Position numbers and translations under genes: made by a program. Positions 5,033 through 30,634 of a stretch of DNA of 30,953 nt are shown piece by piece. This DNA is from a virus. Taxonomy: Duplodnaviria > Caudoviricetes. Position 1 is the stretch's first letter, and each line of letters begins with the position of its first letter. The stretch lies in IMG/VR virus record IMGVR_UViG_3300044233_000092, positions 1-30,953 of that record; one strand, given 5' to 3'. Under the pieces are notes generated by a model that saw only the letters and a list, made by a program, of their open reading frames with translations, searched no databases and had not been told where the DNA came from.

Positions 5033-5288
5033 CAAGCAGAAACTGTGGTATACCTCCATTTACTAACCATATTTGATTTTTATTATGAAATTCTGCAAAT
5101 TCTTTTGCTTTATCACGGAACTTAAATACTTTTATTGTTCTTTCTTTGTTCTCAACTACTGCAAACTCATAAGACTTGCCTTTGCGTTTAGTTTTTACAG
5201 AATACTCTATATTAGAACTTGAAGTCTTGGAACTTCTTGTATTTTTCTTCTGGACTTTCTTCCGTCTTTTCAAGGTTGTGTTCGACAT
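5028..5288 (-). CDS. Basic hypothetical protein overlapping the 3' end of gp41 by 77 nt
   Basis: CAGGAG SD 4 nt before ATG; 86 aa. Confidence 0.7.
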   Translation of the reverse strand: MSNTTLKRRKKVQKKNTRSSKTSSSNIEYSVKTKRKGKSYEFAVVENKERTIKVFKFRDKAKEFAEFHNKNQIWLVNGGIPQFLLD

Positions 5289-6615
5289 ATTTCTCCTGTT
5301 CTGGTTGTATTAAGTTTTGTGCCTGTTGTTCTATATCAAACAGTTTCATTCTGGCACGGTCAACACCAATAATAAACTTACGATTTACTGTTGGGTCATT
5401 ATATCTGTTCTTCAACTGTTTGACTAACATCTGGCCTGCTCTTTCTAATTCTTCACTACTAATTAAGGCAAACATAAAGTCTGCTGTAGCGGGCAAACCA
5501 AAACTCTCTGAGGTATCTTCTAAACCAATATCACTAGATACAAAACCAGATCTGGTTGTTTGAGTTGCGGTTACGATTGGTACATCTAATTCTACTGCAA
5601 GACCACGCATTTCTTCAGCGATTGCTTTTACATAGGTATATGAGTTTACATTTGCACCAGGTTTAAATCTACTACTTGCACATATATTAATATAATCAAC
5701 AAATATGATATCTGGTTTAAATGTTCTCTTTAGTGCCAACTCGTTGACTAATGCACGGTAATGATTAACACTTGCACTTGCTGTTGGATATTCTTTGATA
5801 ATTAAAGTGCCAGTAGTTTTATTTTGTAACTTGACTATCTTTTCGTTAAATAACTTTTTATTTAACATATGTAAATCTTCCATAGATATGCCAAGTAAGT
5901 TTGCGTCTATTCTTTCAGCAATTCTTTCTTCAGCCATTTCCATGGTGATATACAAAACATTTTTATTCTGTGCCAATGCACCTGCAGCCTGATGACACAT
6001 AAACAAAGTTTTACCAACACCCGTGCCTGCCAATGCAACATTAAGAGTTTTTGTAGGCAAACCACCTTTGGTTACTTTGTTAAAATAATCTAAATCAAAT
6101 GGTATTCTGTTTTCTTTTTTGTGGTAAAAATCAAATCTTCGTTCTATATCTAGTAAGTAATCATGGCCAACATTACGATCAAAACTAACAGATAGAGCGT
6201 CCCGTAATATTTCTGGTATAGCCTCAGGAGTATGTTTCTTATCTTTTCCATCTAATATATGTATACCGTCCATTACTGCATTATGTACAGCACGGTCTTT
6301 ACAAAATTTTTCTGTGGTATTGACTAACCAGTCTAGGTCTATTTCTTCTTTGTTAAGTGTAGATATTAAGTCAACGATTTGTTTATATTCGTCTTCGTTT
6401 AAATCTTTGCGTTTACCAATATCAATTTGTAGAGTTTCTTTAGTAGGTCGTTTATTATATTGGTCAATAAACTTTCTGATCTCATCAAATACAATTCGTT
6501 CTTTACGGTCATCAAAGTATTCTGCCTTGAGAAAAGGTAATACTTTTCTGGTATAGTCTTCGTTATGTAATAAATTTTTAAGTGTTGTTCTCTCTATTCT
6601 TTCCGCTGTTACCAT
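5212..6615 (-). CDS. 41: Replicative DNA helicase (T4 gp41, DnaB-like)
   Basis: Walker A AGTGVGKT, FVDYINI, TATQTTRSG, SESFGLPATAD, KQLKNRY. Confidence 0.97.
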   Translation of the reverse strand: MVTAERIERTTLKNLLHNEDYTRKVLPFLKAEYFDDRKERIVFDEIRKFIDQYNKRPTKETLQIDIGKRKDLNEDEYKQIVDLISTLNKEEIDLDWLVNTTEKFCKDRAVHNAVMDGIHILDGKDKKHTPEAIPEILRDALSVSFDRNVGHDYLLDIERRFDFYHKKENRIPFDLDYFNKVTKGGLPTKTLNVALAGTGVGKTLFMCHQAAGALAQNKNVLYITMEMAEERIAERIDANLLGISMEDLHMLNKKLFNEKIVKLQNKTTGTLIIKEYPTASASVNHYRALVNELALKRTFKPDIIFVDYINICASSRFKPGANVNSYTYVKAIAEEMRGLAVELDVPIVTATQTTRSGFVSSDIGLEDTSESFGLPATADFMFALISSEELERAGQMLVKQLKNRYNDPTVNRKFIIGVDRARMKLFDIEQQAQNLIQPEQEKYVEHNLEKTEESPEEKYKKFQDFKF

Positions 6616-15660: not shown

Positions 15661-15864
15661 TTAAAGAAACCGCTCTTGCTGTCTCTTTAATTTGTTAATA
15701 CGCTTTAGACCCTCTTTGGCCTTGCGTTGTCTTTTTAAAGTAGGTTTCTCATAGTACTGGCGCATCTTCACCTCTTTTAAGATACCTTCTTTCATAACTT
15801 TTTTCTTTAGTTGCCTAATTGCTTTTTCAATATTGTTATTTCTAACTTTAACCTCTAGTGTCAT
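15661..15864 (-). CDS. rpsU: Phage-encoded 30S ribosomal protein bS21
   Basis: VRNNNIEKAIRQLKKKVMKEGILKEVKMRQYYEKPTLKRQRK; GAGGTG SD. Confidence 0.93.
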   Translation of the reverse strand: MTLEVKVRNNNIEKAIRQLKKKVMKEGILKEVKMRQYYEKPTLKRQRKAKEGLKRINKLKRQQERFL

Positions 15865-26247: not shown

Positions 26248-26276
26248 TTGACAAAACCGTTGACTTGGTATATAAT
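26248..26276 (+). promoter_or_regulatory. Perfect consensus plus-strand (antisense) promoter TTGACA-17-TATAAT
   Basis: -35 at 26248-26253, -10 at 26271-26276, AT-rich upstream. Confidence 0.75.
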
Positions 26277-26772: not shown

Positions 26773-26780
26773 TATTTATA
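26773..26780 (-). promoter_or_regulatory. Late promoter TATAAATA (leaderless geometry)
   Basis: TATAAATACTAATATG, identical to the gp3 promoter-start. Confidence 0.8.
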
Positions 26781-27654
26781 TATCCACATTATGCATTTCA
26801 TAGTCGAACTCTTGTTCAGTATAAAACCCTACTCTTTCCATAAAGTGATTAAGGGTAAAGTTTTTTCTTTCTTTGTACGAAAAGTCATCAGCGATATCAT
26901 ACAAAGTCGCCCTAGACTTACTATCACCAAGACGCAACCCACGACCAAGAGACTGTAAAACTCGTATTTTAGATTTGGTAGGGCTTGCGAATATAACATT
27001 GTGTAGATTCCTAATATTGATACCAGTAGAAAAAGTTCCGTAACTCGCAACGATAATGGCATTGTTTTCATTTTCTGTAATACTCCTTATTGTTTCTCTA
27101 TCTTTAGTATCTGTGCCACCATAAACAAAAAATAATTTTCTTGTATGTGGGTCTAAAGTATCACCAATCATATCATACAGTATTTTACCATGTTTGTCAA
27201 CATATTGAAATAAAACTAAAGTATTCCCTGTCTGGTCTTTGGTAAGATTTTTGATAAAGTTGTTTCTTCTTTGATGTGATACTATATATTCCATTTCTTC
27301 TTGGTACTTTAAATTCTTTACTTGTATGCAATCTTCTTTAGGATATTTGAGTACCACACATTGTATTTTTAAATCTGCTAATTGTTTCTTATCTATTAAA
27401 TCTCTTGTGGTTGTAACATTTGTAACAGGACCAAATAAACCTTCTAATACTAATTTATGGACTTTACTATCATCTAAAGTACCAGTCGTGCCTATTCTAA
27501 AGTTTGCATTGACTAGACTACCCATAATCTTTTGTAGTTCTTTTGATTTGTATAGATGTGCCTCATCACCAATTACACAATCAAACTGTTCAAAGTATTT
27601 TATCAAATGTGGCAAGAGATTGCCATGTAGATACAACAACAGGTTTCTTTTCAT
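26776..27654 (-). CDS. uvsW: UvsW helicase, C-terminal part (UvsW-like sequence starts near 27597, after the frameshift)
   Basis: GDEAH, GTTGT, SYGTFSTGINI, QSLGRGLR. Confidence 0.9.
   Translation of the reverse strand: MKRNLLLYLHGNLLPHLIKYFEQFDCVIGDEAHLYKSKELQKIMGSLVNANFRIGTTGTLDDSKVHKLVLEGLFGPVTNVTTTRDLIDKKQLADLKIQCVVLKYPKEDCIQVKNLKYQEEMEYIVSHQRRNNFIKNLTKDQTGNTLVLFQYVDKHGKILYDMIGDTLDPHTRKLFFVYGGTDTKDRETIRSITENENNAIIVASYGTFSTGINIRNLHNVIFASPTKSKIRVLQSLGRGLRLGDSKSRATLYDIADDFSYKERKNFTLNHFMERVGFYTEQEFDYEMHNVDI
26829..27071 (-). CDS. Candidate nested +1-frame membrane protein, holin-like (80 aa)
   Basis: TAAGGAG upstream, MKTM dual start, two hydrophobic segments, basic C-terminus; could be a frame shadow. 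Confidence 0.4.
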   Translation of the reverse strand: MKTMPLSLRVTELFLLVSILGIYTMLYSQALPNLKYEFYSLLVVGCVLVIVSLGRLCMISLMTFRTKKEKTLPLITLWKE

Positions 27655-28240
27655 CTATCTCATAACCATAATACTTTCTTTGTACATAGTCTTCCGCTTT
27701 CCAAGAATAGTCTTCAAAGTCTTTGTACATTTGTTCTACCAATGATGTAGTTGGCACTACTAATAAACTTCTTTTACCAAGTGTTGTCATCATTCGTATG
27801 ATACAATAAATGATTAAAGACTTACCAGAAGCGGTAGGCGATAACAAAATACAGCGTCTATGATTAATCGCATGTGCAAAAGCGTCCAGTTGGTAATCTC
27901 TAATTTTTAGGGATTTCGTCAAAATTTTGTCAACAAACTTGGAAAAATCGTCTCTAGGAACGCTACCAGTCCTGTTTAAGCCATCGGGCAGTATGATTGT
28001 ATGGCCGTTTTTTTCACAAAAATGCTGTACATACGGCACTAGACCGCGATACAGTTTACCAGTCGCTTTACTGTATAATCGTATCTTACCGTCCCATCTT
28101 TTGGCACGAACAGATGGCATGAAACTTGCACCTGGTACTTGAAATGTAAAAAAGTCTGATAAGTCTTGGACTAATCCAAGGTCTTCACTTTTACATTTGA
28201 CATATGCTTGATTAAAGATTTCTATTTGTAATTCTGCCAT
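27590..28240 (-). CDS. uvsW: UvsW helicase, N-terminal part (premature stop from the frameshift)
   Basis: WDGKIRL, RDYQ, SPTASGKS, VPTTSLVEQM, STWQS. Confidence 0.9.
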   Translation of the reverse strand: MAELQIEIFNQAYVKCKSEDLGLVQDLSDFFTFQVPGASFMPSVRAKRWDGKIRLYSKATGKLYRGLVPYVQHFCEKNGHTIILPDGLNRTGSVPRDDFSKFVDKILTKSLKIRDYQLDAFAHAINHRRCILLSPTASGKSLIIYCIIRMMTTLGKRSLLVVPTTSLVEQMYKDFEDYSWKAEDYVQRKYYGYEIDEKKPVVVSTWQSLATFDKIL

Positions 28241-30626: not shown

Positions 30627-30634
30627 TATTTATA
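30627..30634 (-). promoter_or_regulatory. Late promoter TATAAATA for gp3
   Basis: Exact consensus, 5 nt before the ATG. Confidence 0.8.

Follow-up and report, generated by a model that had tools for sequence, protein, structure and literature searches.

Gene E of phage phiX174 is nested within gene D. Envelope genes nested in the +1 frame of another gene are already known from other phages too, among them the Sgl genes and Rz1 (PMC6139136). In ssRNA phages, membrane lysis genes embedded in the +1 frame arise readily, and the 33 active leviviral lysis candidates include 21 that are read in the +1 frame of rep (PMC7693330).

Here we analyse an open +1 frame in the helicase gene uvsW of a T4-like phage. 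What our sequence comparisons suggest to be new is a nested gene that lies over conserved helicase motifs in large dsDNA phages and has been remodelled between lineages. Our searches of the open-access literature found no description of a nested gene in uvsW. As far as sequence can tell, it is highly probable that the +1 frame of uvsW is a real, functional gene.

The nested frame in its genome

The window, that is, the whole stretch of DNA analysed (30,953 nt), is a 31-kb fragment of the genome of a marine, pelagiphage-like T4-like phage. It reads on the minus strand throughout, with the capsid end, tail tube, uvsY, uvsW, a late sigma factor, and recombination and replication genes. A phage-encoded ribosomal protein S21 (15661–15864, minus strand) is annotated in HTVC008M too, the Pelagibacter phage that is the closest cultured relative by UvsW. 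In the window, an A-run near 27598 has lost 2 nt, and this deletion splits uvsW. It is absent from all five closest contigs used for comparison, among them one with 99.9% identity, and is likely an assembly error. The relevant features are the following.

26776–27600, minus strand: uvsW helicase, C-terminal part (host frame); PHROG helicase matches; 72.6% identity to HTVC008M UvsW
26829–27071, minus strand: nested +1-frame ORF, 80 aa, predicted small membrane protein; +1 frame of C-terminal uvsW, offset 583
26916–26966, minus strand: predicted transmembrane segment 2, about residues 36–52; found in the window's clade only
26988–27050, minus strand: predicted transmembrane segment 1, about residues 8–28; common to all open lineages, boundaries estimated
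27083–27089, minus strand: Shine-Dalgarno-like TAAGGAG, 11 nt from the downstream ATG; an AGG Arg codon of uvsW forms part of it
27172–27200, minus strand: sigma-70-like promoter match (11/12) within uvsW; the nested start lies about 100 nt downstream
27590–28240, minus strand: uvsW helicase, N-terminal part, cut off by the 2-nt deletion
30627–30634, minus strand: match to a T4-type late promoter; lies upstream of the run of tail-tube, uvsY and uvsW genes

The ORF, which overlies the last conserved motifs of the C-terminal part of uvsW, is present as the original prediction described it: it starts with an ATG, begins MKTM and is preceded by TAAGGAG formed with the uvsW AGG codon. TAAGGAG occurs twice on the minus strand of the window, and the second copy lies 6 nt before an 87-codon ORF. 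The two hydrophobic segments of the prediction are there as well (two 19-residue windows with Kyte-Doolittle maxima of 1.8 and 2.6), and so is the avoidance of NTA in all 10 of the 10 Leu/Ile/Val codons that precede a purine. An AlphaFold model of the product is one long helix (pTM 0.33) and is uninformative. Metatranscriptome contigs (depth 2–4) overlap the ORF in three of four runs, and such contigs show neither strand nor frame.

The late promoter match at 30627–30634 may be the source of the transcript of the uvsW run; the window holds four such matches, a count not above chance. A perfect 12/12 sigma-70 match lies on the plus strand at 26248–26276, upstream of the late sigma gene, and points back into a 152-aa gene and uvsW. 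Antisense RNA over the nested ORF could arise from it.

Taken alone, this genome makes a weak case. Given the protein and the codon usage of the context, the probability of an open frame at the nested site is 0.0017. But of 3000 simulations, 29% contain a +1 run as surprising as this one at some place in the window (P about 0.29), and 51 of 369 +1-frame windows show two transmembrane-like stretches by default. Such a near-chance signal is what one would expect if there were no second protein and the frame reflected non-coding constraint (RNA structure, accuracy selection or recent recombinational spread) or shared ancestry. The relatives allow us to weigh this explanation.

Selection on the +1 frame in close relatives

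We collapsed 161 uvsW loci into 117 representatives. The near group comprises the 36 representatives with at least 76.5% identity over the C-terminal half of uvsW; two loci with 77% identity and a stop at codon 46 (L042 and L054) were moved to a middle group of seven before counting. Stops in close relatives would have refuted the original prediction, and this check did not refute it. The first +1 stop of the near group falls at codon 81 in 30 of the 36, at codon 74 in three and at codon 64 in three, which leaves at least 63 open codons in every one. The middle group has its first stop at codon 46 in five members and at codon 36 in two, HTVC008M among the latter. The near group starts with ATG in 33/36 and GTG in 3/36 and keeps AGGAG in 29/36.

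Openness goes together with a specific pattern of codon choice. NTA before a purine makes up 6/390 cases inside the ORF in the near group compared to 1001/2006 outside it, and NTA before a pyrimidine stays common (116/253 inside, 831/1342 outside). Among the synonymous differences at at-risk sites, counted in 16 disjoint pairs, the ratio of stop-free to stop-making ones is 22:1 inside compared to 66:157 outside (p = 4e-10).

Synonymous variation, whose normal level would have spoken against a second gene, is reduced. Diversity in the near group is 0.70 of expected over the ORF and 0.57 over codons 9–49; in distant homologues it is 1.04 of expected. The lowest window that does not overlap the ORF stands at 0.89. 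Four-fold sites diverge by 0.117 inside and 0.258 outside in pairs. The reduction is weaker in clade B and absent in clade C, two lineages described below. These rates are based on present-day sequence pairs and column diversity, not on branch-wise counts.

Other genes of the window behave differently. The best 60-codon window of 11 control genes carries at least 1.0 +1 stop per sequence, compared to 0.10 in the uvsW ORF; five genes with too few relatives and gp43, which had no usable windows, were left out. The two runner-up +1 runs of the window, which lie in two other genes, are broken in relatives (3.7 and 3.9 stops per sequence). The best control window itself lies in the gp41 helicase (window 5212–6615, codons about 176–235), with 1.0 compared to 3.7 expected +1 stops per sequence in 32 representatives. 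This partial deficit comes with normal synonymous diversity.

It is quite improbable that all of this arises with no second protein. First, RNA structure was rejected as the cause: the folding z is +1.3, the covariation term is only −0.73 kcal/mol and there is no Rfam match. Second, accuracy selection on conserved helicase residues was rejected too, because invariant Leu/Ile/Val residues use stop-making codons in 201/304 cases elsewhere in uvsW and in 0/78 inside the ORF. Third, two-fold pyrimidine sites diverge normally inside the ORF (0.154 vs. 0.142 outside), hence the segment is not young and a recent sweep is unlikely. Fourth, the +2 and antisense frames over the same stretch carry stops, and +1 alone is free of them. 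Fifth, three clades show the effect and a fourth does not. Apart from the near-chance signal of the single genome, this explanation can draw on an ORF-region tree that is more compact than the tree of the N-terminal part, and on a mild baseline stop deficit in clade Z pairs and in cyanophages, to which we now turn.

Lineages and forms of the predicted product

Among 74 distant representatives gathered regardless of their +1 frame, 26 are open over codons 4–59 compared to 2.2 expected. Two further searches were seeded by open members, and clades B and C were named after their openness had been seen; later clade counts are therefore enriched. On a tree of 211 representatives, with openness scored over codons −12 to 35, the frame is open in 19/19 members of clade B (1.2 expected), 17/18 of clade C (2.1 expected) and 50/100 of the remaining sequences (3.6 expected). 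Clade Z, which has the same helicase motifs, is open in 0/48 and has 160 stops compared to 138 expected. Hence the helicase motif itself does not forbid stops. The pair test gives stop-free ratios of 14:0 inside and 65:126 outside in clade B, 13:1 and 44:108 in clade C, and a small baseline effect of 22:41 vs. 73:297 in clade Z (p = 0.013).

Clade Z has a peculiarity at nested codon 18. This unusually uniform synonymous site holds a stop-making codon in 42/48 sequences (ATA in 40; e.g., L131 and L411), as if the frame were held closed, or as if one loss were shared. An apparent second dip in clade Z turned out on inspection to have no shared open frame.

In 58 cyanophage representatives, five are open over codons −12 to 35 compared to 6.3 expected, and they have no common start, so we claim no nested gene there; stops are mildly depleted over codons 9–35 (4 vs. 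28). T4 and KVP40 are closed early, T4 uvsW being open over codons 9–27 only. Of the cultured phages, Melnitz is open over codons −29 to 59 and HTVC008M over −28 to 35. The frame is thus not that of a universal lysis gene: clade Z, T4, KVP40 and most cyanophages have it closed, and length, start and topology vary from clade to clade.

Start signals follow the open frame in part. Outside clade A, the clade of the window, GGAGG followed by a start 5 nt later (codon −12) goes with an open frame of at least 47 codons in 33/34 sequences, compared to 47/139 of those that lack this arrangement, though sequences are not independent. Clade B has the canonical GGAGG-5 nt-ATG in 13/19. The frame is open and the GGAGG motif absent in 5/19 of clade B and 18/18 of clade C, whose starts are therefore uncertain.

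One could also argue that the selected thing is not a free protein and that it is the act of +1 translation or a frameshift entry, which would regulate uvsW or provide a membrane anchor for truncated UvsW. Clades B and C have 25–55 open codons upstream as well, and the long Shine-Dalgarno spacing in clade A and the weak conservation of individual residues would agree with this. We nevertheless consider it very unlikely. A +1 stop at codon −5 in 26/36 near representatives leaves four codons for entry, and by eye these hold no slippery heptamer. The canonical start signal of clade B speaks against it too, as do the varying stop positions and the end of the window ORF, 62 nt before the next gene. 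Simple regulation is at odds with hydrophobicity that is selected beyond openness, a property that would suit an anchor, though.

That hydrophobicity was judged against synonymous resampling conditioned on openness. Over codons 13–33 the Kyte-Doolittle value exceeds this null in clade A (1.74 vs. 0.74), clade B (2.11 vs. 0.96) and clade C (1.80 vs. 1.07), but not in closed clade Z (0.76 vs. 0.91). Codons 36–51 are strongly above the null in clade A only (2.39 vs. 0.65, mean z 2.85), and over this second segment rare uvsW codons (CAG, CGT, GGG, TTG and CTT) are fixed in the near group. Values above an openness-conditioned null indicate that selection acts on membrane character. Selection on residue identity is not visible: nested-frame substitutions are no more conservative than those elsewhere (BLOSUM −0.81 vs. 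−0.78, p = 0.72).

The product differs between lineages. Clade A has two hydrophobic segments, clade B has one long hydrophobic stretch flanked by basic residues, and several smaller groups have a one-segment form. By length and type, the putative forms would be 80 aa with two passes here, 45–60 aa with one pass, 70–90 aa from an upstream start, and lipoprotein-like. T-ending codons of the conserved helicase motif make the +1 frame hydrophobic by default, and lineages hence appear to build different products on one shared membrane segment.

The lipoprotein-like form belongs to clade C, which includes Melnitz (e.g., L414:1693-1860). Cys27, present in 17/18 and mostly following ITS or TTS, makes a lipobox-like motif, and Cys39 and Cys46 are invariant. 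The motif recurs in database proteins (e.g., P0004, P0035 and P0055), several of which end in IPF. Near the N-terminus of uvsW, clade C has another ORF in the +1 frame, about 57 codons long (e.g., L385:1363-1533, plus strand, and the same stretch of Melnitz uvsW, L323). GAGGA stands about 8 nt before its ATG, and its C-terminus is hydrophobic. The 50 codons tested are free of stops in 16/16 of clade C, 0/24 of clade A and 1/45 of clade Z, and the ORF is also open in 3/17 of clade B and 10/75 other sequences.

A single-sequence search for homologues of the ORF found nothing, and two queries of the ESM Atlas gave sub-threshold matches only. Profile searches found 1 and 8 proteins plus 61 cluster representatives, together 62 distinct proteins. 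One of these is a repeat protein; the other 61 align to uvsW read in the +1 frame, and some of them come from frameshifted assemblies. These searches thus found no free-standing homologue, and overprinting is the most likely origin of the gene. The data agree with a single origin followed by losses as well as with several origins.

Lysis, other roles and comparison with known systems

The product was originally proposed to be holin-like, in part because its MKTM start was likened to the N-terminal dual-start motifs of lambda S (MKM) and phage 21 S (MKSM). What stands of this proposal is a well-supported, selected membrane-protein ORF; the dual start, the basic tail and the holin-family arguments failed. 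Met4 is found in 24/36 near representatives and is Thr in 12, and TAAGGAG would sit 20 nt from it. The basic stretch, read as a sign of a holin, is equal in clade Z, which lacks the ORF (codons 64–72 carry a net charge of +2.2 in clade A and +2.1 in clade Z), and is hence a by-product that is not diagnostic. The window product matches no holin family in PHROGs, Pfam or NCBIfam. Phage_holin_3_6 is matched by 1/22 aligned members (E = 0.018), amid many generic membrane families. Failing such tests, the ORF is not classed here as a class II holin.

It had been pointed out that the window shows no other holin, but this says little for a single 31-kb contig, which is the whole assembly, compared to the 147 kb of HTVC008M. 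Against a role in lysis, no endolysin matches were found among the 38 window proteins, and the products vary between clades. In favour of such a role, the HTVC008M annotation (198 features) has two endolysins, about 60 kb from uvsW, and neither a holin nor a spanin. The main text of the Melnitz paper contains no word beginning with “holin” and names no holin gene; the paper proposes CsgG as a pinholin analogue (PMC9004378). The ready origin of +1-embedded lysis genes in ssRNA phages speaks for a lysis role too (PMC7693330).

Given that the gene is real, we put a role in lysis at about one half. Our best explanation, held with slightly less than even confidence, is an overprinted, selected ORF that is likely translated into a small inner-membrane protein, most plausibly a holin-like lysis timer. 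Overprinting would have placed the +1 frame on uvsW, and selection would have preserved both its openness and its hydrophobic character. Translation would start from its own ribosome-binding site on the late uvsW message, probably at a low rate because of the long 11-nt Shine-Dalgarno spacing. The clade A product would cross the membrane twice with both ends in the cytoplasm. As a guess, it would accumulate and then permeabilise the membrane, thereby releasing or activating the phage endolysin. Holin is the leading single guess for the nested product, not a result.

The nested gene may also be real and its membrane product do another job: superinfection exclusion, antiholin activity or lysis inhibition, blocking of an enzyme of the host envelope or, for the Melnitz clade, that of a lipoprotein in the outer membrane, such as an o-spanin. 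We lean away from such a role but give it appreciable weight, since all of the selection evidence fits it equally and patchy presence suits an accessory function. For an o-spanin speak the cysteines of clade C, two cysteines being the commonest o-spanin pattern (PMC6139136), and a match to PHROG 456 “Rz-like spanin” in one of seven clade C members (E = 0.005). The other six miss this PHROG, no i-spanin partner was found among the window proteins, and the product of the window itself lacks a lipobox near the start (Cys27 occurs in 0/26 clade A members). ITS-C fits the consensus lipobox but TTS-C does not (PMC6139136). Exclusion is not backed by a family match to exclusion proteins. A host-type promoter match upstream of the ORF in the window would agree with a role outside lysis, but does not track the ORF: matches of at least 11/12 occur in 7/36 near and 15/73 far representatives, several of them lacking the ORF. 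We rejected this patchy internal promoter as a companion of the ORF. The match is built from the uvsW codons for V-D-K-H-G...Y-D/N and turns up in scattered lineages, six with 12/12.

A broader reading, which we regard as rather doubtful, is that the lysis genes missing from marine T4-like phages that infect SAR11, OM43 and related hosts are hidden in uvsW. The +1 frame would then be a hotspot for de novo membrane proteins, remodelled into a holin with two passes here, into holins with one pass in other lineages, and in the Melnitz clade into a lipoprotein spanin accompanied by a second nested gene.

Returning to the holin-like reading, the cultured relatives have endolysins but no recognised holin. 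For the timing of lysis in these abundant marine phages the nested ORF is a specific, short and cloneable candidate, with forms in cultured Melnitz and HTVC008M. Whatever its function, it points to an unannotated gene family overprinted on conserved helicase motifs. Lineages with and without the ORF provide a natural experiment in gene birth, and the locus suggests scanning core T4-like genes for stop avoidance in the +1 frame.

How does the ORF compare with known systems? The T4 holin T (class III, one transmembrane segment plus a large domain in the periplasm; PMC9636201) is a T4-like holin with one pass, as in the short forms here. It is a free-standing gene, however, its periplasmic domain is large and we found no similarity between the two. 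Class II holins such as S21-68 of phage 21 (two transmembrane helices, N-in and C-in; PMC9636201) share with the nested ORF a length of about 80 aa, two predicted segments, basic residues flanking these segments and probable late expression. The nested ORF differs in that it has no family match and no conserved dual start, lies outside a lysis cassette and has relatives that are one-pass or lipoprotein-like.

Embedded o-spanins such as lambda Rz1 in Rz (PMC6139136) are likewise out-of-frame nested envelope genes of dsDNA phages, and the Melnitz-clade form resembles them in its lipobox-like motif and two further cysteines. Rz1 is nested in its partner (PMC6139136), whereas our ORF lies in an unrelated enzyme gene of a window in which no i-spanin was found, and its product has no N-terminal lipobox.

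The Sgl genes in the +1 frame of levivirus rep (PMC7693330) differ in their host gene. Here that gene encodes a DNA helicase, and it belongs to a large T4-like phage with dsDNA; the nearest cultured relative of this phage carries endolysins of its own. The Sgls are mostly found in the variable parts of rep (PMC7693330), whereas the ORF in uvsW overlies conserved motifs and is a candidate for lytic activity. What both have in common is a small hydrophobic ORF with its own Shine-Dalgarno sequence, placed over an essential nucleic-acid enzyme gene, without homologues elsewhere and missed by annotation (PMC7693330).
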